A DNA stretch of 64,000 nucleotides from Amphiscolops sp. MND2022 (taxonomy: Eukaryota). Shown here piece by piece: positions 47,163 to 63,997 of this stretch (within the stretch, counting starts at the first letter, position 1; each line of letters starts with the position of its first letter). The position numbers were made by a program, and so were the translations under genes. The stretch is from NCBI GenBank assembly GCA_964187785.1, contig OZ076409.1, positions 25,546,001 to 25,610,000 of the forward strand. Reading direction: 5' to 3'. The notes under the pieces were generated by a model. The model was not told the DNA's origin, made no database searches, and saw nothing but the letters and a program-made list of their open reading frames with translations.

Positions 47163-50100
47163 TGAAGTAGACTGTTGATAAACAACTTTATATCAATCAC
47201 CGTTGCTACTTTTAGTTTGAACTTATTATCATTATTGTTTACTAACAACTACACAACCCTTAATCAAAAGCTGATATCATTACAGTAAACTTTCAGCTAG
47301 AGTAAACATTGATCTTAACTTCTTTTCTCGAGCCTATCTTAGAATTACTTCATGGCGCAGTCAGCAAGATAATTATCCAAAGATGAAAGATGGACAACCA
47401 TTCTTTACGGTGACGGTATTGGTTAACAACCGTCCAATCAAATTTATAATAGACAGCGGATCACCGGTCACTCTGATACCAAAACAAAAATTCAACGGTA
47501 TTACAACAATATACCCGTTGAACGAAGAATACCGAGATGTAAACAATAACAAAATTAAATTCGAAAGAAAAACAATGGCAAACATCGAGAAAAGAAAAAA
47601 TTGGAATTACTGATCACCACAAAAAGAACGAACCCACTACTTGGATTAGACAGGATGAAACATCTGGGAATAAGCGTAAACATCGAGAAACCAAATACAA
47701 AAATACAAAACATTCAAGAAGATCCAGATATCACGGACTTGAAGAAAAAATTCAAAAAACTATTCCATGAGAACAAAACCGTGAAAGGAATAGAAGTAGA
47801 CATCCAACTTAAACCAAATGCAAAATTGATGCAACAAAAAGGCCGACCGATACCGATTCACCAACAACCGGCAGTCGGTAAAGAAATTGAAAAGCTAACG
47901 GAGAACGGCCATATCGAAAAAGCTACCGATATCGACAAAAACTGCTTCGTCAGCCCAGCCGTTATCAAACGACAAAACGATAAAAACGTCAAAAACGACA
48001 AAACGATAAAAATCGGTTTAGACTCACGGAAACTCAACGAAATCACCGTGAAAAGGAAAGCGCAAATGCCAAACGTGGAGGAATTAATATCCAGAATATC
48101 CAGAAAAATCGCTGACGGAGAAGAAGACGAGATATGGATATCAAAATTCGACCTGGACTATGCATACGGTCAACTACCGTTATCAAAAAACGCAAGGGAC
48201 CTATGCATATTTGCGGTAACCTGAGGGAACTTTACCGGTTACTATCGATTCCTCAAAGGCTTCTACGGCTTGGCGGACATCTCGACCATATTCCAAGAAA
48301 AGATTGACCAAACACTGGAGAACAAACATCCGGCGTGGTTAGATGACATATTAGTAGTCCCCAAAGGGACGAAAGAACAACACAAGCGCGAGTTAATAGA
48401 CGTATTAACAAAACTAGAAAAAGCTGGATATAGACTGAGCGAAAACAAAACCGAATTTTTTAAATCGGAAGTAGAATGGGTGGGACACAAAATTGACCAA
48501 AACTGTATCAGACCGTTGCAAGATAAACTCAAAGCCATACAAGAATTAAAGGAACCAAAGAACGAAAAAGAACTGAAACCCTTTCTGGGGGCAATTCAAT
48601 ACTTGTCAAAATATATTGAAAATTTGTCAGCCCAAACGGATTTACTGAGACAATTACTGAAAAAAAATACCGAATGGATCTGGACACCAGAACATTCCGA
48701 AGCATTTACACAATTGAAAAATAAAATCACGGAGATACCGTGTCTAGCACACTACAACTCCAATCTACCGAACACAATAACAACAGACGCCAGTACGAAA
48801 GGCCTGGGCGCAACACTCTGGCAGGAACAACATAACGGCGAACTAAAACCGATAGCATTTGCAAGCAGATTTCTATCGGACACCGAAAAGAAATACGCCA
48901 TCAATGAACTAGAATTATTGGCGGTCGTATTGGGCTTAGAACACTTCCGTTTATATATATACGGTAAACCGATAAAATTGCTGACCGATCACCACGCTCT
49001 CGAATTAAACGCAACCGCTCAAATAAAACATACAGCGCCCGTTTAACTAGATTGCTGGACCGATTAGCAAACTTCACAATCAACGTGAATCACATCGCGG
49101 GAAAGCATTTAGCCTTAACGGACTACTTAAGTAGAAATTCAAACGCACCGCCACAACAAGATGAAGCGTACGAAGAAGAGTAGATTAACAGCTTAGTACC
49201 GCACTACGAATTTGTTTCAAAAGTTGGTTGCCTTAGCAACCACTTCGTCCAATCACACGCACACAGCGAAACGTCAAAAGGAACGAAAACAAACAAACAG
49301 CCGTCAACGGAACGCACACGTGAACAAAACGCCATTAATAGCATTGACCGCACCGCAACAAGCAGCACAAATTGTCAAAATCAGACAGAATTTAAAACAA
49401 TGGATGCTAAAACAATGGACAATTTGGAACGAATCGACAACTCCCAAGAAACAACAGACCTGATAGAGCGGTGGCGAAATATAGTGAAGCCAGGAATATA
49501 CCGACTCTCAAACGGTAAATGGAAAAATACCTTGAACCGAAATTCTTACGCGGAGAAAGACGAGACATAGAAGAAAAACTTTCCGAAATAATCAGGAGAC
49601 TAGAAAGCCCGGCCAGGGAAATTCGAAACCGGCCACATCAAAAACGGTATACCAAAAACGATAAGAACGGACGAGGCAACAGCCTTTACCGGACGACAAT
49701 TTAGAGAATTCCGCAAAAACAAGTTCATAAAACTAATATACGGGACACCGTATATACACACCCCTACCGGCATAGTAGAACGAGGAGTACGTACTCTGAA
49801 AGAAAACCTAACTAAAATTAAAGACGGAAAACCATTTGGAAAAGCATTGGACTTAGCACTAAATGTGATGTGAACTACACCACACACTAGGCTAAGAAAA
49901 TCCGCTTTCCAATTACACTTTGGCAGAGAGCCAAACACGGAATGGAGTAATATGTTGAAACTAGACAAAACTAAATCGATAACCAATAATTTCATTTCAG
50001 CACGGCCAGATACCCTACAGGTATACACATTCAGTGGAGAAGGCGGTAGTTCCGACCATCTACCAATGAAACAAAAGAGAAAAGGAGCAAAAACGGTAAG

Positions 50101-51050
50101 TAAATACCCGTTTCAATTCTTCGAACGAAACAATCAAAAGGGAAAAATCGAAAGCCCATATTCAGAAAACCTACAAACGGCAGTCACGGGAACGAAACAC
50201 ACCGTGACCACTTCAGAAAATAAACCACCGTAAATTGATTAACAAACCTTTTATTACATTTGAACAGGAACCAACAAACAGAGGGACGGGCCCAAGAGGA
50301 CCAGACGGGAGATTTCCCAAGAAACAAGACAAATCAAAACACTCCCCCGAAAAATCCCCATCAGAAGAAGATCTGGACACCAGCCCAGAACCGCCCACCA
50401 CTAAATGGACAAGCACAATCGGCAGGGGACGGCCACGGACAACGCGAGAAAGTACATCGCCAGACAATACACCGGGTCAACAAAACAATACAGGAACTGG
50501 AATGCTCACAATTATTTCAAACCAAATGTCGGAGTTCGACATTGACCAAACAATAAAAGATTCCACACAATCAGGACAAGAAATCCAAATCAGAGACGAC
50601 TCCGGTAAGGTAACATTTTATAACAACAAAAAAACAGAAAACAAGCTAGACACATCAGAACTAGAATTAGTAAGTAACTTAAGCTCTAGCACCGAAATAA
50701 AAAATGACTTAGAACAACTAGAAAATGCTAACCTACGCCGGTCAAAGAGGCAAACAATAACAAACCCAATTGTTAGACTAAATAACCCAGTTAACCAATC
50801 TGATTACAGGAAACACGGTAAAACGACTCAAGGCGCTTGAACCGTAACCTAGAGTGGAGGAACTAGAACAGCGAATATAATCTGGGACCTAGATCTCCGC
50901 GGCCCTAGCTCATTTTCCCTCCGAAGGAGCCAGTCCCAAGGTGGGGGAACCGTCTCGTTGGATACTCTCTGGCCTGGTCCTAGTCTGCAACTGCTAAAAG
51001 TAACAGGCATCTTGCATGACTCAAGACTACTGCTCAACTAGCCTTTAAAA
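47163..51050 (+). mobile_element. Decayed, internally deleted Ty3/Gypsy element (Mag-like); probable 5' LTR 47163-47352; no gag; 3' LTR not seen
   Basis: TGAAGTA...TACTTCA termini, then PBS TGGCGCAGTCAGCAAGAT. Protease FIIDSGS, RT (QMPN, FDLDYAY, WLDD), RNase H (DAS..GLGA, ELELLAVV), integrase core (GIPKTIRTD, GIVERGVR), with stops and frameshifts. Right boundary approximate. Confidence 0.9.
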
Positions 51051-52305
51051 ATCGGGCTGAAAATCGGTGAAGGTAGAACCGTAATATTGGAGAATCTGAT
51101 AAAATCGCCAAGTTGGATAAACAGATGTTAAATAACAGCTCTCGAGCATATTAATTTATCACATCGAAAAATACAACAAGAAATCAAGAGTTCAGAGTCA
51201 TTTGATGGAAATTGACCTCAGCTTCCCAGCGCTAGCGCCAGTTGCCACACAGGATACCGCAGGAACACTCAGGCGAACATCTGGAACACTGGTTTTCTCT
51301 ACTGTAGTAACGGTAATCTCCTAGAGATGGACACTATACCGTGTTCTGTATACGCTGGGGACGTCTCTCTAGTCGTCTCCGGTGCTTGTTCGTCACGAGC
51401 GGCAATTTCTGATTTTTTGGGGTGCTTTTTCTGGCAGGTACTTCGTCTTGAGCATGTTTGAGTGCCACGTCAAATTTGAACGAATTTTTGACAAAATTTC
51501 TGAACATGTCGGTTGATATTGCTGTACCAGAGCTTGCCGTTACATCACTCCTCGGGCTCCTGGCTTGTCGTCCCTGGCAAGCGGCGTCTGGGCTCGTCTG
51601 GAGACTGTGTCACGGTGTCCGCTGGGAACCATCATCCACACATCAGGGAACAAGGACAAGTCCTTGTTTTTCGGCAACAATTTTGGAAAGTTTTCGCGGT
51701 TTTTCTCAAAGAAAAGCTTACTGCCTAGTTATTTTTACAAAAACGCGAACGAGGTTTTAGCACCAGCTCGAGAGCTAAGGTTTTCAGCCGGTTAAAACTC
51801 GTTTGGACAACCGATTTTCGTTAAAACTTTTTTGCGACCAAAGTCAGCTAAAATTTCTTTTCCTAATCATTCGGCATTTGTAATCTTCAATTCGTTTCTG
51901 GCGATTTAAAACCTCTTTTTTTAGAGCTCGCGGGCTCCTACAGTAAGCAACCAAATTGATAGAGAACACTAGACGAGAAAGAAAAATGCAACCAAGAGGG
52001 CTAAAACTTCTTTTGATTATGATAACTCAAAAACACCGCGAACGGTGCGCAACAAAACTAGCAGTTTTTTGAATAATAGTTTTTCTTTTGTTTCTGCTTG
52101 GTAGTTCAAACCACTGGGGCAGACGCACTCTATTGGCCGTACATCCAGTGCAACACTAATGGTACGCTAATCATATAACTATAACTACGAACAAAAATTG
52201 CACTTCGTATTGTAGCACCGTTTTGGATGAAAAGTTCTAAGGCACTGTTTGTCGGCAGTTTTTCGGATGTACAGGGAGCGCGAACGCTCCCGTTGGCGAC
52301 TGGGT

Positions 52306-55300
52306 TCATTGAGCCGAACTGCGTCGGGCCCGCTCTTTAGTGGTATCATCGGGGGTCTTCTCTGCATTATCAGTCGACACTGACGCTCGACGTCGGGGAG
52401 AGACTTCTGTGGCAACCGTCTCAGGGTCTGACAGATCTTCACGGAGCGATAACTCGGCAATGGGCTGCACTAATGCTGCATTGGGAGTCAACTCAGCTGC
52501 GTGCTCTCCTGACTGCGGCTGGGAGGACTGAGGACTAGTTCGTGACGATGACGGGCTAACTGGTTCTGGCTCCAAGTTGTGAGTTGGAAGATTAATGGTG
52601 ATCGGTTGTGAAATAGGCCGATCCAAAGACATCGCCATCGTTGGCGCGAGCATGGTAGGCGCGAACGCCTGTTGTCTCGCCATTTCCGCTCTGCTTTCCA
52701 CGGCTAATGCGACTCGTCGTGAGATCCACCCAGGTTGGCTCCAGAGCTCGCAAGCTCTTTTCCACTTAGGAAAGCTAGCAACTTCCAACTCCAGACAATA
52801 CTCCTCCCATTTCGCTCGTTCTGCCGAGCCCAACACAGAATTAATCTCGTCATGCTGAACGATGGACATATCTCCAGACATGGTCATTTTTCCTTGGGGC
52901 TTCCACGCCGACTTCCGGGGGAACGCAGTAACACGGCATTGGAGGTTTCGTTGCCTGATCTGAGCAGCGCCTTCAATCCACCCAGGTATCTGGGCTGGTT
53001 CCAGGTGCTGGAATTGCCGGTTGAAAATTTCAGGGGCGCGTCCAACGGGTTTCGCCCTTGGCCAACCCAGTGGTTCCTTCCAATATCGGTTTGGGAAGGC
53101 GATGCACTTGAAACAGTACATGGGGTCTATTGGTGGACCAGCACTAGTGCTGGCGCGGATCGCCTTCCGTATGAATTCCTGACTCCACGGGAATCTGAAG
53201 GGGACTCCTTCCAAACTGAGAGGTGCGGAGTACCAATTCACCGGGCAATGTTCTCGGGGTAGAGGACATGCTTTCCTGGTGCGCGCGCGCAACAAGCCCA
53301 TCAGGTTCTCCTCTAGCTCCCTTTCAGACTTTAGGGTCTTGTATCCATGCGGCACTTCACCACTCAGCACAACATGTATTACTCTTGGATACGCCAGTGA
53401 GGGACGACCTCGCAGGTAAGTGCTAAATGAGACCATGTGTACTTGGACCGCGGTTGCTAAAGGCTTGGTGGGATATCGGCACACGCCCACAGCGCCAAAG
53501 TTAGGGGCCAGGACGGGAGCCATGGCTGCCACAAAATCTTCTACATCAGCTAGGGTGAGATCAGCGATCTGCTGCGGCAAGGGGAATCCTGCCGTTTCTC
53601 GTGGGATTTGTTGGTCTGAGTTGTGTAACGGCTGGGACTGGTCCACGCCCACGAATAGACCAGAGGCAAACACCAGGGTGGAATATAACCAGTGCTGAAC
53701 CGACGCACGCATGCGCTCCAACTGGGCGGAATAATCTTGTTTGTCCTTTGAGGTCATTAGGTGTCCCCAACAGGTCAGACTGCGCAGTTGCCTTTGTGCT
53801 AGGATCAAGTAACTGTAGAATACGGTGAGATCACAGGCAATCACGATGTCAACTAATAGGGCTAGTGGTCCGGCTACGAACTTCGTTTTACCCATCGCTA
53901 GCGCGAGCGCTAGTATTTCTCCGATAGTGGCCTCTCAAATGGTTTCTAGTAGCTTGTCTGTTTGCGTGGTAGTAAGCGAAAACTCGGAAGTTATCACCTC
54001 AAGGTTCCATCCCAGACCAAGACTGGTGCAGAAGGCTTCTAGTGAACAGTTGAGCTCTCGAGCTACTTCCGCTAGAGTCCTGGTGGCGAATCTGGTTTGG
54101 TACCAGTGGGCATAAGTGGTAGCAGCGGCGTCGACTTCGGCTTTCAGATTGGTTGCTTCAATTGCCACGATGCACCGCAGTCCTACGGACAGCTTCACAG
54201 GCTCGATTCCTGAGGCGAAGTGGATCTGTGGAATCGTCCTCTCAACGGTACGCGCTGCAGGCCATGCACCGATTTGTTTCGTCAGCTCGGCTAGTTCCGC
54301 GCGCACTGGGATTTCTTTGTCCTTACGTACCAGCCAATTTTAACGACGAACAGTCTCTCGTTCGGTCACATTTGACTCACGGGCGATGCGGTTGCCGTCG
54401 AGGTCGAAGGCCATCCTGCCCATTCGCATTCCATGATCGTAGAAAATAGCGTCGTCGATAGTTAACTGGGCATTTCCCGAGCGTTCTATAGCGACGAGCG
54501 CTCTAGATACAGCGGCGAAGAAGGCTGGATATGACAAGGTGTCTGGGCGCAGGTCCTCTCTGCGCGCTTTGCAGACCTCCAGCAGAATGTAGACAAACTG
54601 CTGCAGGCTTCGTGGCCAGTACATTAATCCTGGCGGGGATACAAAGAGCGCGAGCGCTCCCAAGCGACCCCGAAGGATCCCTGCGGCACGTTCCATTGCG
54701 CCAACAACCTCATTCACTAAGGCTGCAATGTCTCCAGGTCGTCGAACGTCGGACATTATGGCGTCTAGATCACGCAGCAACCCTTCGCAAGCCATGTGAT
54801 CCAGAAGGTTGGCGAAGATCACGCGCTGTGGGGGTGGCTCCTTCTGTGATCCCCTTAGATTTGGATCGTACATGGCTCCAACCATCTCAGCGATCTCAGT
54901 GAAGCGGGAAAGGGGCATAGTCAGTACCAGCACGTCGGGCATCAAGTTGTCAATAGGCAGATCACTCCGGCAGGAAGAATCGACTGCCATACAGTAGCGC
55001 GCGCTGCAAAGCTGCCTTCAATAGGGGCTTCAGAGATCTCAAGTTGCAGGCGTAGCGGGCGTTCGCTTCCCAGGTCTCACTTCTCGCAACACGTACCGCG
55101 CGGGAAACTGCTCGGTGATATTATGTTGCAGGGGTGCCATGTAGTTGTTAGTCGTCATGGGCAGCTGGTCTCGGGTACGCTGTTCCCAAGCCTGCTCCGA
55201 CAAATCTGCGTCACGGGGCGCAGCAAACGTGTGACCTGCGCTGGTATCGTGGTTCGATTAATTTCTTTTTGCTCCGTCGCAGTGGGAGGGGCCCTTTTCT

Positions 55301-56570
55301 TTATGGCACCTTGACTGGGGTAAAGGTGCTCAGCGGCCATCCAACTCGACGGCGTTTGCTGTCGTTTGTGACTACTGAACCGGACACGTCATCAGAGGGA
55401 GGGAGGAATGCTGGCGGGCGGGCCTCCTCTACTGTTTCAGGTACCTCCAGGGACATATCTACTGGATTCGTGCCCGAGGGCACAGAGCTCACTTCCGAGC
55501 CTGCATCCGGATCTCCATACTGCTCGATTGCATCCTCTAGAGACATTTGAGGCGCACCTCGGCCTAGATGACCCACTCGATTTAGAGGCCTAGGAATGAC
55601 CACACTTTCCAGCTGGGGTCGAGGTACATCAGCGCGTTTGTCAGGAGGGGGACGACTGGTTGGACTCTCGGTTACTGAGCCAGCTGGGGTGATCGAGGCA
55701 GTTTCTTCGGTTAGTCGCATCCTCCCGGCTTCTTCTCGAGCGCCAGAGCAGTGCTTGCGCTATTGCTTGGTCCAGCAGCAATTTCTACATCCATGGATGC
55801 TGTCTCGACTAGAGGAGCAGGAGGATCACAGCCCGAGGGCTGAGCGGCGGCTTGGAGATAAGTGGCTAGTCCAGGGATCCTCTGCTCTACAGCACGAACA
55901 AAATCGGAGGAGTTCGGGTAGTTGGCCACTGCTTGTAATGCCACAATTACGGCCTGTTCGCCAGTACTCCTTCCAGTCAGGTCTGGGTTTGGTATGGGTG
56001 GCAACCGGGACCCCGAGGGCTCCCGATCAGAGACTGGTGCACTAGTTGTAGTTTGCAATACCATGTGTGGCGCTCGGTGCGATGTCCGAGGGCAGGCGAA
56101 CCGGAATAGGTCGGCGTCATTGGTATTGGTTTTGGTGCTGGTGGAGGCAACGCGACCATCTGTGGTGGCGGTATTGTTGCGACGTTGGCAGACACCATAC
56201 ATAGGGAAGCTTCTTGCTCGAACCTCGTGCCCTGGCTTGGGCCAAGCATTGTGGTAGAGCGTTCATCTAGGAATTGATGCGTCAAGTCGTGGCCATCCCA
56301 TGCATTGTTCTGGCAGGTTAGCGTGCGACGGTAGCCAGCTACCTCTGTCACCAGAGACACAGATACACCTGGCAGCGTCTGCATCGTGTCTAGTTGAGTG
56401 AGCAGGGCGGCCACGCCCGCTACCGCTAACGGTGAAAGGCCGTTCCTCAATCGCTCCTCTACATATTGGACTTGATTAGTCCTCTGCGCTCGCGCAGGCA
56501 ATTCTTGAGACCTATTGCCATGAGGTCCCGTTGTGGGGATAGGCACCGTGTTGTTGGGGTAATAAGCCAT
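52306..56570 (-). pseudogene. Large accessory ORF of the Gypsy element (about 1,400 codons if repaired), function unknown
   Basis: ATG at 56570 after a ~250-bp AT-rich spacer, with overlapping ORF pieces. 54990-52306 is a single frame broken only by stops at 54340 and 53935. Confidence 0.7.
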
Positions 56571-56822
56571 TATTTCATAGGTCTAAAAGGATTACCGTTA
56601 GGCTTACTAGGTGCATTATGGGGAGAGCTTAAGGCTCATCATTCAGTTACAATGGTGCGAAAACGGCTCCATAAGGGAACCGCAACAAATTTAAATTGCA
56701 GTTCATCTAACTAACTAGAACAAAAAGGAATTGGTTTTTGAATAATACATTACAAGCATGGGCATGACAATTACCAAGGTGGGGAGATTAGGGAGGGGGC
56801 AACAGAAGAGAGCTTGGGCAGG

Positions 56823-59800
56823 CTATTCCGGCCCTATGCTCAGTATAGACACATACACGCGGTTGTGCAGCACCACGTGAATGCCAGTACCCTCAAGCAA
56901 GTTCGTTAGGGTATGGTACAGATTGACCAATGAGAATGCGGGTCGCTCTGGATCCAATATAGGTAGGTGGACCCTCGTAGATCCTTTTTCTATCAAACTC
57001 TGTATCAAGTGCGTCATACAACGTAGGTAATCGTCGGTGAGCAGCGGCGCACGCTGATTTGCTCTGATTATCAGTAGGTGAATACTGTGATTGGGGTTAG
57101 GATTAATATCAGAGGGAATGGTGAGGATTTCTCCCACCTTGGGCCGCAAGGAGAACACGTTCTCCTTGCCACATTCCCGTAGCACGTACCGTAGGGCGGC
57201 TGAGTACGCTAACACTATATCACCTTCAACCTGAAGAAAGTCAGTCACAACATATGAGAAGTGTTCTGTCGGGGCTGGATACAGGACTCCCGGGTAGATA
57301 ATTTCTCTCCCCGGCCCATTGTCGGCAGGCAAACATACGCGGGGCGTACGCCCCTGGACTGCAGCCAGGTCTTGCCACACCGAGCGTGGCATCGCTCGAT
57401 TATCACTGCTCGCTTTGACCCATGTGTCCAGGGTGCTTAAAGCGGCTTTTGGGGAAAGTGGAACTTCAAAAGTATGAGTCCACTCGTCCAGCAACCTAAT
57501 GCGAGGGAAATTGGTGAAGCAAGTGATAATCAGTTCCCACCACCACGCAAACTTCACTTTGCCACGATACCAGTCTATAATCTGAAAGGAAAGTATCAAG
57601 TCCGCAGTAGTGAGGGTCCTTAGACCTTCTAAGCAGGACAGCAAGTGCAGTGGTTCCACTATTGCCTCCACTCGTGGAGCAGTGACCAGCAACCACCAGT
57701 GCGGTGCTGGGCTGTACACCCCGCCCGGGTCCACATGAATTCCGTATTTGTCGCCGAGGAGATCAGCGGTGATGCATCTGACCATTTGCACAGGCTCCCG
57801 CTCAAAGTTGAATGGTCCGAACGCGATGTTGCTGGGTACTGGGGGCATCACCGTGGCAAGGGTAAACTCTAACCCTTTTCCGTCGCTAGTCCACTCCTTG
57901 AATCGGGGGCATGGAGCATTTGCTACTCCAGGTGATGATAACTTCTCCAGAATAGTGTCTACGGGATGGTCTCCGGATCGTTCCACGGAGGAATAAGTTT
58001 TCTCAGCTCTCACCGTCAGACGATGCACTAGATTTTCTCCCCGCTCCGGAGGAACTCCCCGGGCTCCAGTGGGAACCCTCCAGTTCTCGTTGACGGCTAG
58101 CAAGCAGACACAGTCTCGCAGCCCACAGAATCCGCATTTGTAACGTGGCTGCCGCCTGCTTCTCAACTGGTATCGAGGAACTTCAGAAGCCTCGGTCGGC
58201 ATTACTGTTTCTGATGGCATTGTTGTTGTTGTTGGCGTTTCCTTCTTCCTTGTTCTTGCCTTCGCTCTGACCAGCCGTTTTCGCGTTTTGGGGGGTCTCC
58301 CCCTCCCCCTTTTGAGAGAAGGAGCGGTCCCCGCTCCGGGCAACGTCGAGGGAAGAGTAGGCACGTTGAACTGAGCGTCGGCATCCTCACTGGCGGACTT
58401 CATAGGGAGTGAAGGAGCAGTCGGCCAAATGGGATAATTGTTGAGGAAACTCGTCAGTGATGGATTTGTCAATAATGGGGCTGATGTTCCCAATAAGGAG
58501 GACTGTTTTTCGGGAGAAGATATTCGTGGTGACGGAGAGCGCGCACGCTCATGGTCTGATAATAGTTGAGGTAGACGATGGGTAGGTGATAGTGATGGAT
58601 CTGAAGGGGGGTGGGGGACTTCGGGTTCCATTTGATCAGCATCAACGGGATCAGGAGGTACCGGCAACATGACGTCGGACGGTTCATCGTCAGTGCCCGA
58701 GGTAGAGTAGTCAAACTGCTGGTAGTGCATGCGGGAACCTCCAGCACGCAGCTTTGTGCGTAAGCGAGTATCCACCCAATGGTGCTTGCGCGAAGGCAAG
58801 GATACGTCAGATGCCTCTGAAAGCAATTGTTCAGTTTTATATGAAGGCTGAGATTTATCATCATCAACCACATCGATAGAATGTTCAGGGTCAGGGTCCA
58901 TGAGCACCACTATTTCGCCGCTGTCCGCTTGCGCGGCGGCGAGCTCAAAGGGCCCACTGTGATGAGGTTTCAGGCGCTCAAAATGAACCTTTGGGCCTGT
59001 GTCCAACACGTAGACACGTCCTTCTTGGAACACCTGGTCTACTTTGTGCGGGCCACGCCAGGCAGGCATCAGTTTGGGGGAGCCTTTTTGCGGCACATAG
59101 CGGCAAAAACCCAGACAAGCTCTCCTGGCTGGTAGGCCCGTGCTCGAATGGCACGATCAAATTTTAATTTTTGGCGTAGTTGGGCCTGGTGCGTATTGCG
59201 CCGGACCAAGTCGTGAATTTCCTGTTGGCGAGCCAACACATGATCCACGTATGCTTCATGCGTATCAAAGGATTTGGCTGCAAATTCAGGGTACAAAAAG
59301 GTGAGAGGGATCGCTTTCTCTACACCTCTAGTCAACATGTAGGGTGAGAAGCCAGTGGTGGCATGCCTGGTAGAGTTATAGGCACCAATTACTTCATCTA
59401 GGCATTGGTCCCAATCGCGCATGCGGCGCGAGCAAAAGACTCGCAATAAGGTTAAGAGGGTGCGGTTTTGTCGTTCCACCAAACCCTGAGATCGAGGATG
59501 CCCGACGGTGGAAGTCACTTTGGTGACGTGAGCTGCCTTCAGGAACTCGTTAGAGTTTCAGCGGTCAGGTTTGGAGCATTGTTGGATTGCATGCGAGTGG
59601 GAGTGCCAAGGCGGGCAAACCATTTCTGCAGCAGTAATTGTGATGTGGTCACTGCATCGTAGTCGTGGTGACTACAAGGGACCGCCTCTGCAAATTTGGA
59701 AAAATGGTCTACGATGACCAAAATGCCTATGTTGTTATTAACAGAGGGGCAGATTTTTAAGTGGTCATACTGGACCAACTCGTTAAAATAGCCACTCTGA

Positions 59801-62800
59801 ATGTTTTTTAGTTGAAATCGTACGTCACCGGGCTTGTCACGTACTTGTTGACAGGTGAGGCACTGGCCGACGTATCGACCGACACTGCGTCGTATGCCAG
59901 GCCAGGTGTGGCGCTCTTGAATTCGAGCTACCACCTTTGAGATGCCTTGATGTCCCATGGCATCGTGCGCACGGAACAGGATTTCATGCTGGTATAGTTG
60001 GGGCATTATGATCATGCACGGACGTTCGTGCAATGGGCGTTGGGTGGGTGAGTATTGCACACAAAGGACATCATTCTTGTTTATGAACAAGAGGTCCTTT
60101 TTCTGGCGAAAATAGTTACGTGCGAATTCTCGCACGTTCTCGGGAAACACGTCGTTATCTATGGACTCACATTGCACGAGCTTTTTTAGTGCTAGCACAT
60201 GGACATCGCGGTTTTGGGCTAGGACCAAATCCTTGATCCCATGTACGGTATGAGTGTATTCATGGAGCTCGGTGTCAATGTCCTTGAGGGCCATGATTGA
60301 CTCTCGCACGCCACAAGGGAAATTCTGCAACGTGGCGGTATTCGTTCCCGCCACAGAATAGTTAGTACGAGAGGGGACATTTACTGCATGTGTTGGCAGC
60401 AGGTAATCCTCGCTCGCCTCAGTGGTGACGCCTATCCAGTCTTTTGGATAGTCTGGGTAGAAGTCCTCGTGCGTTTGTAGCACGGATGGGGGCTCGGGCG
60501 GTAGAGGCGCGGCTAGCGCCTTCGCCTGTCGTTCTCGCTTATTCGCCCGTTGCACACGGCGAAGCACGCGAAGTGCTTGGTCAGGAGCCTTAGGCTCCAA
60601 GTTCTGCAGATGTGCTGGTAGATCAGGGTGATTTGGAATTATTCAGGTCGAACCAGGGAGCTACTGGGAGGTTGTCGAATTCCTCGGCTGAGAGGAAATT
60701 CCAACGCTCTCCTGCAGCTGGCAGCTGCGCAAGCTGCTTTTCTCGGCATCGATAGTCGTTAGTACGTTTACTCAAGCCATCAGCATTGCGGTGTTGAGTT
60801 CGCGGTCTGTGTTCCACACGAAAGTGATACTTGTCTAAGGTCATGATCCAACGACCAATCAATGCTTGGTCCGTAGAATAGGTCTTCAACCAGGACAGGG
60901 CTTGATTATCGACTCTCAGTGTGAACTTTCGGGGGCAAAGGTAGCTATGGTTTTTCACGATGAAGTAATAGGCTGCAAAGGTTTCTAGTTTGGGTGCCCC
61001 ATACTTGGCTTGGGTGGTGGTGAGTTTCTTGCTACCGTAGATGATCGGTCGCAGGCGTCGCTCTCCTGGAGCTCCTTGCCACTGATGTAGAATGCCGGAT
61101 ATGGCAACAGCGCTGGCATCGGTGTCCAGCACAAACTCTCCCTCGGAATCAGGCTGCGCGAGCGCAGTCGCCTCGATCAATGCCTTTTTGATCTCGTTAA
61201 AGGCTTTTTGTTGTTTGGGGCCCCATGCAAACGTGGCAATCAGTCCAGTGACGGCGTGCAGGGGCGCAACCAGCTCGGCATGCCACGGGATAAATTCATG
61301 ATAGTAATTGGCGAATCCCAAAAAACTCTGCATCTCTGTCTTGTTGCGAGGGATCTCCCAGTCGCGCAATTTGGCAACAGCCTTCGCGTCCGGCTTGACA
61401 CCTTCTGCAGAGACCACGCGTCCCAGATACTTGATTTCCGATTTCATGAAATCACATTTGGCTACGCGCATCTTAAAGCCAGCCTCGCGGAGGCATTCAA
61501 AGACTTCGCGCAAACGCGCCATGGGATCTTCTACAGTCTCCGTTGCTATTACTATGTCATCAATGTATGCCATGACCATACTGCCTTTGCGATTGACTAT
61601 TTTTGTAGCGCTCGCGCTATTGCTCGCTGGAAAGTGGCTGATGCATTGCACAAGCCGAATGGCATCCGCCGCCATTCGAAGAGTCCCAACTCACAGGCAA
61701 AAGCAGTCTTGTGGCGGTCCGCCTTTCGCAAGGGAATTTGCCAGAAGGCCCAGGCAAGATGTATGCTAGTGTAGATCTTTGCATTGCCCAGTCGCGCCAG
61801 GCTTTCATCAATGCGGCCAGGGGGTAGGCATCCTTAATGGTTACTTCGTTTAGCGGTCGGAAGTCACAGCAAAAGCGCAACTCCCCGCTCTTCTTTTTTA
61901 CCATTACGATACCACTTGCCCAAGGGGACAGTGAGGGTTGTATCATCCCCAAGGCCAGTAGGCTTCGAACCTCCTGGTTGGCTCGTTCAGCCTTTTCGGG
62001 GGACATTTTGCGAGCACCTTCACGGTGCGGTACAGCCCCAGGCTCTACCTCTATCGTGTGTTTAGCAATGGTACAGCGGCCGATGTCAGCCTTACGCTTC
62101 ATGAATAGGTCGTCGAACTCGTTAAGAATGTTGTCCAAGGACTCGCAGGCGCTAGCGCCCCAGAGCTTCTTAACCTCTTGCAATTGAGAATCTGGCCCAG
62201 GGATCGGGGCCAATAGGTCCGGGTCAGTGCGCTTACGAATCTCGCGCTCCGAAAGCCCCGCTTCACTTGGATCCGTCGAAGACAAAAACTCAAATTCAGA
62301 CGAAGAAGTCAACACAGAAACAGTAAATAGAATCATTTCACTGTACATTTTATAAACAAAATTTGCTCGACCGTTGTCGGCTTCAGTTTCATGGTCAGTT
62401 TTTGCAGTAGCGTCCAGATTTTGGGGCACAGCCTGATATACTAAGGACACAGGCACTACCGTGCCCAGGTGGGCACCACATCGTACACGCTGCTGGTTGC
62501 TGGTGAGGTTTATCAGACTCACGTACAATGTTCCTGTCTCACTGACAGTGGCCACGCTGTCCTCTAAAAAGATGGTATTTTGCAACAGGGGGTCAGACAA
62601 CGAGGCGTTAAGCGCCACAGTCTGAAAAATTAGTGGTTCAAGCGCGTCAGTGACGAGCTTAGCCTTTGCCACTGTACGCTCGAAAGGCTGTAGGACCAAA
62701 TCACTGTCCAGAGCAACGGGAGTAGTTAGCGAAGCGTCCCCTACCTGGGTGTGTGCATGATGCCAGACTGGTTTCACTGGCGCTCGCACCACTATCTTCA

Positions 62801-63215
62801 TGGAAGTTAGCTCCACCAGGTCTTGATAGGAACGGAGGAAGTTTCGACCCAACAGGAAGTCCTCCACACCCATTGCGTCATCTACCACGACAAAGTTGGT
62901 TTCGAGTTCATACCCTCCCAATTGGAAGCGAACTTGCTCAGCTAACCCGGAGGTCTTTATCGTCTTCCCATTGGCGGCGTACAAGTCAATTTGATAGGGT
63001 TTCAGGACCGCACCTGTCCGTGCAGCTATCCGATTAAAGGCGGAGAAGGTCAATATCGACACGCCTGAACCAGTATCTACCAAACCTCGCAGTGGGATAG
63101 GCGCCGCATGGGGCACCACAAAGGAGACAACAAGCGACGCACGCTCGTCTATTCGCGCTTCTCCAGTGGGTTCTTGGTGATTGATATTGTAGCACTTCAG
63201 CTCTTGAGGTCCCAA
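56823..63215 (-). pseudogene. pol (protease, RT, RNase H, integrase, ~700-aa C-terminal extension), split by several frameshifts
   Basis: LVDTGSG / LLGRNFL; SPWASGIVMV, RFCCDFRPLN, YIDD; DTDAS, VDNQAL, HRNADGLS; H..MGH..C..C, VDHFSK, GLVERQNR, YNSTRH.TTGFSP; WRGP...KVHFERLKP. Confidence 0.93.
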
Positions 63216-63997
63216 GCACAGGCGGGGGGGGGGAATACATCAACCACCACGCAGGCTTCGAACTTCACGTCTACGCCGTCCATCGTTGCACAGACTGGTA
63301 CTGGAGAGTACGTAGTCAAGGTTTCTGACTCTCCAGGGACGTACCACTGTTTTGGGCGGGGTAACTCCATCCGTTTGTAGAGGATTGATAGCTCAACCCA
63401 GAGTTTCGCCAAAAATAGCGTTGGTCTACGCACTTGCTCGGCGGCCAACATCAGATGAATCGAGATCAACGTTCGCCCCTGTGGATCGAACGTGGTAGGC
63501 TCCAGGCACGTTTGGACTTGTTTTGCTCCGCACGTAACTATCAGTGGGGTATGAAACGCTGGGGGTTCTGCCGGGTGCAACATTAACACACGGTCATCCT
63601 CTAGGGGTACGGTGTGGGCGGCAACACCAGCGGATTCCACCTCAGCCCATCGATTGTAGGCCAATTCATCACTAGGCCTTGGGGCATGAGAATGTTCGCC
63701 GCATGGGACATCCACGTGATCAAAGACTCCACAGTGCGTACACTGATGAATGCCTGGACAACTCTCCAACACGCCATCGGTCACGTCTTCAGCAGTGACC
63801 TTCACACCTTCTGGCTCGGGGGCTGCCGCTGGTTTGCGAACCTGGTCGCGGGTGGGACAGTCCCGAGCAAAATGCCCAGTTTGACCACAATTGAAGCATG
63901 CGCCAACAGGTAAGCGTGCTGCGGGCTGCGCTGATGCCTGATTTGGTGGGGCATTGCTCGCACGTGGGGGAGGCATTACTCCTTGAGGCAGCACCAT
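63197..63997 (-). pseudogene. gag C-terminus with CCHC zinc knuckle, followed by a degenerate protease-like region
   Basis: CFNCGQTGHFARDC; frameshift at a 10-G run (63224-63233). Confidence 0.8.

Follow-up and report, generated by a model that had tools for sequence, protein, structure and literature searches.

Macro domains of the ALC1-like class, which encompasses human TARG1 (also OARD1 or C6orf130; PDB 4J5R, 4J5S, 2LGR), DarG, Poa1p and SCO6735, share a minimal macro fold. The catalytic dyad of TARG1 has been reported to consist of Lys84 and Asp125 (PMC9411070, PMC7050489), and a single exchange in its glycine-rich diphosphate loop (Gly121-Cys-Gly123), namely G123E, was described to abolish ADP-ribose binding, catalysis and recruitment to damage sites, while the variant is more stable than the wild type and still binds RNA via basic patches (PMC5928194). 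SCO6735, a hydrolase of the same class, is reported to be active without the Lys/Asp dyad and to hold the diphosphate with Gly126 (PMC9411070). Outside the TARG1 class, SUD-N and SUD-M of the SARS-unique domain (SUD) have been described as tandem macrodomains that are blind to ADP-ribose and have been reused (PMC2674928); being of independent origin, with a basic nucleic-acid surface and a place in the replicase of an RNA virus, they serve here as an analogy only.

To our knowledge, few accessory domains of integrases have been described. Macro domains in retroelements are already known, as are chromodomain fusions to Gypsy integrases, and TARG1-like domains are annotated in Pol proteins of insect Gypsy elements. 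Epsilon-like fish endogenous retroviruses, for example, carry macro domain frames (PMC4977317, citing Basta 2009), although these are Retroviridae and hold their macro domains as additional frames. Chromoviruses such as MAGGY likewise bear a host-derived, reader-type fold at the C-terminus of their integrase (bioRxiv 2021.11.30.470311). The tail described below, in contrast, ends in predicted macro folds, contains no chromodomain according to Pfam and goes along with no visible target preference in the flanks of the insertions. Within an incomplete coverage of the literature, we found no description of an integrase that ends in a degenerate TARG1-type module arranged in tandem; PMC5408684 and PMC13524379 make no mention of "macro", and PMC8120803 contains neither "transpos" nor "retrovir". 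A conserved tandem pseudo-macrodomain that is invisible to Pfam would represent a new accessory type and, at the same time, a small and foldable test object.

The element and its integrase-fused tail

The window, that is, the whole stretch of 64,000 nucleotides analysed here (contig OZ076409.1 of Amphiscolops sp. MND2022, positions 25,546,001 to 25,610,000; the coordinates of features below are counted from its first letter), contains a Ty3/Gypsy element on its minus strand. Paired LTRs with TG...CA ends, a primer site and a purine tract mark it as such, as does the order of Gag zinc knuckle, protease, reverse transcriptase (RT), RNase H and integrase that Pfam detects across 63901 to 59069 and that is followed by a further integrase module. 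The zinc knuckle is found at 63854-63901 (PF00098, E 4.9e-9), protease, RT and RNase H at 60623-63095 (PF13975, PF00078 and PF17917/PF17919), and the H2C2 finger and core of the integrase at 59069-60003 (PF17921, E 4e-16; PF00665, PF13683). The adjoining C-terminal module (WRGP...VHFERLKP, 58965-59060) is the one that we take to go by the name of GPY/F. This motif name is found in print (PMC2836005). In comparison with its sibling L037, the copy in the window is broken by frameshifting indels near 59104 and 59556 in the integrase and near 60643, 61599 and 61817 in the stretch from protease to RNase H; it furthermore suffered a 21-nt in-frame deletion near 57205 that none of 29 sibling loci shares. 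Its 3' LTR (50832-51544, minus strand, with the outer ~16 nt missing) shares 98.2% identity with its 5' counterpart outside the window (5' LTR at C1:25614571-25615283 of G000), and the element measures ~18.4 kb in total.

The element was inserted into a second, frameshifted Gypsy on the plus strand (47275-50840), within the 3' part of the latter, and a 190-nt repeat at 47163-47352 is found again beyond the 5' LTR of the studied element. In all three subfamilies examined, the primer-binding site starts ~15 nt inside the 5' LTR end (L068:4530-4560 and further LTR loci), the usual offset being 1-3 nt.

Measured from stop to stop, the tail frame, which includes the integrase tail, spans 56823-59156 on the minus strand and comprises 777 aa, rather than the 757 aa given in a first-pass annotation of this DNA, whose quoted motifs are all in place (WRGP at aa 33-36, VHFERLKP at aa 57-64, DFLQ at aa 639-642, LLIIR at aa 694-698 and IHVVLH at aa 759-764). 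Behind the integrase module, the frame holds an AT-hook-like motif (KRGRGRPPK, 58287-58313), a cluster of cysteines of the form C-x2-C-G-x3-C-x-C in a basic stretch with a net charge of +5 to +6 (58104-58136), which is likely to bind zinc, and two predicted TARG1-type macro folds, a shorter one termed M1 (57483-57839) and the terminal M2 (56859-57275), inside which the 21-nt deletion falls. The AT-hook, the Cys cluster and M1, which lies outside the part it had covered, escaped the first-pass annotation. A conserved and confidently modelled beta-rich subdomain (aa 377-437, ~57846-58028) precedes M1.

The first-pass annotation had moreover described a macrodomain fused downstream of the integrase. 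For the window copy itself this does not hold, as the frameshift near 59104 severs the tail frame from the integrase core, and the fusion accordingly rests on the siblings, in which, where intact, the tail forms the end of a single pol frame that measures up to about 3000-3300 aa. In all eight siblings fetched, one frame continues to the same end, M2, and in both of the two that were scanned with Pfam, RT, RNase H and integrase share this frame. Among 20 full-length copies from several subfamilies, which were selected for long frames, every single one has the tail in-frame with the integrase, ends in M2 and contains the Cys cluster together with between one and three RGRP cores; Pfam recognized the AT_hook only weakly, in 9 of 36 members and with an E of 0.2 at best. 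Divergent subfamilies, in which numerous frames stay open over roughly 3000-3300 aa, retain the entire tail at 37-56% identity, and one protein that is 37% identical (P0070) combines rve, H2C2 and tail. As a separate observation, the L031 pol contains a spacer of 254-276 aa between RNase H and the integrase zinc finger.

The studied element is very abundant in the genome: a search of its 1.07 Gb with the last 200 aa gave 3628 first-look candidates, a figure that does not equal a copy number, and among these were 150 scored matches at 91-97% identity, the copy itself excluded. A representative search returned 237 proteins at E<=0.001. Since P0150 and P0160 match the genome at only ~33% and 50-54% identity, respectively, the tail is probably present in other species as well.

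Predicted folds and pocket residues of M1 and M2

Pfam reported no macro domain in the tail of the window copy or in 36 aligned members, and phmmer and hmmsearch against the PDB returned weak unrelated matches and no macrodomain. A reference profile was assembled from the intact TARG1-type domains that further Gypsy families of this genome carry (see the following section); their alignment matches human TARG1 with an E of 3e-43. In profile-profile comparisons, M2 hit this reference with an E of 4.6e-7 and a score of 46.2, the maximum in 50 column shuffles being 24.9. M1 was borderline (score 19.6, shuffle maximum 20.2), and the comparison of M1 with M2 gave 23.1 (shuffle maximum 19.9); as M1 does not rise above the shuffles by sequence profile, its case was decided by structure search. 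The region of aa 413-777 was modelled with AlphaFold (pLDDT 76, pTM 0.49, 92 sequences); for this model, the top eight Foldseek rows were all TARG1 (best E 4e-7), and a VIA search with M2 placed TARG1 (4j5r_A) first with a Z of 15.3 and an rmsd of 2.2 A over 129 aligned residues (model residues 219-354). A second model, covering aa 333-602 with M2 left out (pLDDT 84), again had TARG1 as top Foldseek match for M1 (E 3.6e-5). In the wide VIA search, M1 (aa 440-558) matched 2lgr best with a Z of 10.5 and an rmsd of 3.0 A over 116 aligned residues, tied with BT1257 (2afc) and DarG, and SUD entries, one of them bound to Paip1, appeared at a Z of 6.5. Given that both models match TARG1 first, the tail is predicted to carry two macro folds in tandem, both of which are, on the evidence of these models, minimal macro folds nearest to TARG1, DarG and Poa1p. 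The TARG1/Poa1p-type macrodomain that the first-pass annotation had expected as the top match of profile and structure searches was in this way recovered for M2.

In comparison with TARG1, to which they are ~14% identical, M1 and M2 have lost both Lys84 and Asp125, and the glycine-rich diphosphate loop is replaced in either domain. In M2 of the window copy, Arg698 stands at the position of Lys84 and Asp735-Pro-Glu737-Arg-Pro739 at Gly121 to Asp125. The same pattern recurs among 69 M2 sequences, counted as related sequences and not as independent events: Arg is found at Lys84 in 66 (Lys in one), Asp at Gly121 in 65, Pro or Ser at Asp125 in 40 and 20, respectively, and Ala at Gly43 in 65, and several Arg are near-invariant. 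Glu occupies Gly123 in 60 of the 69, in a register that was taken from the profile alignment rather than from a residue-level superposition, in which the segment Pro118-Phe140 aligns without gaps when M2 is set against TARG1 and against the intact Gypsy domains. Both the exchange of the catalytic Lys for Arg and the replacement of the GCGLD loop, as noticed in the first-pass annotation, therefore hold well beyond the window copy. In M1 (108 sequences, likewise related), Lys84 is replaced by Ala in 79 and by Ser in 26, and the loop reads Asp-x-Tyr-Arg-Gly, with Asp at Gly121 in 102, Tyr at Gly123 in 92, Arg at Leu124 in 96 and Gly at Asp125 in 100, according to a register that was counted from the last helix and agrees with the M1-M2 alignment; an Arg-Gly-Lys loop is also present. 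As both domains have Asp at position 121 and Arg at position 124, a duplication after the loss of the loop may be suggested. An Asp after strand 1, presumably the adenine contact, is retained in 58 of 69 M2, so that part of the pocket may survive there; none is evident in M1, and the position is variable in the intact Gypsy domains too.

Because the Glu at Gly123 corresponds to the very exchange that was described to abolish binding in TARG1 (PMC5928194), M2 is likely blind to ADP-ribose, and judging by their pocket residues, M1 and M2 likely neither bind nor remove it. This speaks against the binding-only ADP-ribose module proposed in the first-pass annotation, that is, a catalytically dead but binding-competent reader that would steer integration to ADP-ribosylated chromatin. 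A TARG1 fold at the position of a chromodomain, the basic residue at Lys84 and the Asp after strand 1 are all compatible with such a reader, but with Glu and Asp in the loop of M2, Tyr and Asp in that of M1, the reported failure of TARG1-G123E both to bind and to be recruited to damage sites (PMC5928194), and flanks that show no target preference, it appears improbable. SCO6735 provides a precedent for a different scenario, in which M2 would possess a remodelled pocket and act as an enzyme on, or a binder of, another ligand (PMC9411070), and the high conservation of the replaced positions (the Arg, Asp and Glu counted above) fits in with this. However, SCO6735 keeps a Gly for the diphosphate whereas the M2 loop has none, and the conserved Arg and acidic residues may merely pair with each other, which renders this scenario very improbable.

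The net charge of the two domains bears on a further possibility, namely that the macro pair binds nucleic acid (RNA or cDNA of the element, or target DNA) on its surface, in analogy to SUD and TARG1-G123E. The latter reportedly keeps its RNA binding via basic patches (PMC5928194), SUD has been described to bind G-quadruplexes (PMC2674928), and the near-invariant Arg in M2 as well as the Arg-Gly-Lys loop in M1 could serve a similar purpose. Yet M1 carries a net charge of -1 to -4 and M2 one of -4 to -9 in four of five copies (+3 in the remaining one), unlike the intact C-terminal domains with +11/+12, and the basic charge of the tail is located in the AT-hook and Cys cluster, so that we regard nucleic-acid binding by the pair as rather unlikely.

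Selection on the tail and intact domains in the same genome

Pairwise dN/dS between natural copies gave values for 5 of 13 pairs, the other eight being near or at synonymous saturation. In these five pairs, M2 showed a dN/dS of 0.07, 0.08, 0.08, 0.12 and 0.13 (upper bootstrap limits 0.14-0.36), M1 of 0.04-0.10, RT of 0.00-0.10 and the low-complexity linker of 0.11-0.26; in no region did the point estimate exceed 1. According to these estimates, the tail is retained under purifying selection in the siblings, in agreement with the constraint that the first-pass annotation had anticipated for related copies. As the linker is also constrained, the macro domains do not stand out by selection alone. 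A chance read-through or an unconstrained tail was ruled out by the frame shared among 20 of 20 copies together with the dN/dS values.

The tail nevertheless diverges faster than the enzymes, the identity of M2 amounting to 41-54% in comparisons in which that of RT is 82-93%. Such divergence would suit a counter-defence module that acts away from integration, for example as a decoy for a host protein of the PARP pathway or of silencing, possibly after release by the protease, and the intact TARG1-type domains in several unrelated Gypsy families described below could likewise point to an ADP-ribose-linked pressure. The location behind the AT-hook and Cys cluster, however, points to DNA, a cleavage site was not identified, and the tail shares in the lack of any point estimate above 1, all of which makes a role in counter-defence hardly probable.

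When the genome was searched with Pfam Macro, intact TARG1-type domains turned up in further Gypsy families, where they occupy one of three positions in pol: behind the integrase at the pol end (L059:1939-7713:+, and L060:2539-7920:- of the L060/L063 family), between protease and RT (L061:2922-8471:+, L064:3172-5676:+ and L065:4235-7243:+), and between RNase H and integrase (L062:2772-7565:-). These domains are single copies that keep the catalytic Lys and the GCGxD motif and are hence, as far as residues can tell, good candidates for active ADP-ribose erasers. The families resemble the studied lineage in carrying the same domain class inside pol, two of them behind the integrase, but differ from it in their single domain of catalytic type and, in the one family checked, in target-site duplications of 5 bp instead of 3 bp. 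Their RT-RNase H region is 22-36% identical to that of the studied lineage (L064 and L063 left out), which makes several separate captures likely. We do not favour a derivation of the tail from those families of the genome that carry an intact domain at the pol end, the RT-RNase H identity to these being 22-25%; for the family whose domain is situated between RNase H and integrase, the value is 34-36%. A tree of 10 rows, with long branches and no outgroup, shows distance and not the order of events. A search for full-length relatives of one intact C-terminal family returned one protein, which lacks an RT motif, and thus says little on the frequency of such fusions. LTR candidates numbered 2570, 4118 and 2333 in three tail-bearing subfamilies as compared to 34 in one intact-domain family, a difference that is to be read as a correlation only. 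Since the same genome also holds the intact domains, spread over three places in the pol of unrelated lineages of Gypsy, active and degenerate versions may be compared side by side, which bears on the question of whether ADP-ribosylation acts on retrotransposons.

In the window subfamily, pol is followed by a second large frame of ~1400 aa, which is broken in the window (52306-56582, minus strand) and open over 1377 aa in a sibling (L036:2-4132:-). Searches of Pfam and the PDB with this frame yielded no match, and it belongs to no known family by these means. Its dN/dS is 0.09 in two of three pairs and 0.37 in a near-identical pair, values according to which it is under purifying selection. 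Part of the frame resembles an SGNH/GDSL esterase by eye. An SGNH/GDSL-type esterase has been described as ORF3 of rotifer LTR elements (PMC5408684). In two other subfamilies, the 3' LTR follows ~1.1-1.3 kb past pol and the second frame is absent there.

Insertion sites and a possible role of the tail

In the external flanks of the LTRs (109 flanks), the GC content is 0.29 within the first three bases and stays at 0.37-0.39 throughout from there outwards. Genes for tRNA were found in 0 of 99 flanks, and the sharing of repeats was no higher near the junction (17/99) than at 1 kb (17/99). Given this flat GC content, the lack of tRNA genes and the equal repeat sharing, neither a site-specific nor a regional target can be made out at such a scale, and AT-rich, tRNA-linked or repeat-specific targeting was dropped as an explanation.

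Target-site duplications of Gypsy elements typically measure 4-6 bp, a usual range rather than a strict criterion for the family. Among 40 testable insertions of the studied clade, 33 have duplications of 3 bp, two have 4 bp and five have none, which places the clade outside that range. The 3-bp duplications are spread over three subfamilies (12/12, 11/15 and 10/13) and have A or T as central base in 28 of 33 cases; the chance rate of a 3-mer match is 2%, and 95 of 100 LTR loci (L107-L216 set) had both ends. In a control Gypsy family with an intact C-terminal domain, four pairs showed duplications of 5 bp by eye; no match was seen for a fifth candidate, the two members of which lie 31 kb from each other. 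With annotation tools being set to 4-6 bp by default, elements that make 3-bp duplications would be easy to miss. Duplications of 3-5 bp are given for IS3/IS481, which are presented as analogous to LTR elements (PMC2836005), and nothing on 3-bp duplications in Gypsy elements was found in the literature, the coverage of which was incomplete. The 3-bp duplication suggests an unusual geometry of the integrase.

As to the tail itself, we give roughly even chances to the reading that the tandem, ADP-ribose-blind pseudo-macrodomain serves as a docking module on the integrase. This reading starts from the established architecture, its conservation across subfamilies, purifying selection and the residue replacements, and from two folds that are predicted. 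An ancestor would have captured a TARG1-type domain, the glycine-rich loop of which would have been lost before the domain was duplicated into M1 and M2. With the tail staying attached to the integrase, the basic part with AT-hook and Cys cluster could then grip DNA, while the mostly acidic macro pair could bind a host chromatin protein or the integrase itself. Several points weigh against a docking module: the Asp after strand 1 is still kept in most M2, SCO6735 is active even without the dyad, the protease could cleave the tail off, and no target preference was seen in ~100 flanks. A broader scenario, which we put forward as tentative and consider doubtful on balance, would be that a very successful Gypsy clade turned a captured ADP-ribose eraser into a duplicated, blind module, a new class of integrase tethers. 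Acting jointly with the AT-hook and Cys cluster, this module would alter how targets are captured and would account for the atypical 3-bp spacing, with several other Gypsy lineages of the genome having independently kept the active enzyme; the tail and the 3-bp spacing are two features of one clade and, as such, an association only.

Elsewhere in the window, the segment 35800-38639 contains long inverted repeats (148 nt at 95% and 54 nt at 96% identity) that lie ~2.5 kb apart and resemble the ends of a non-autonomous DNA transposon.
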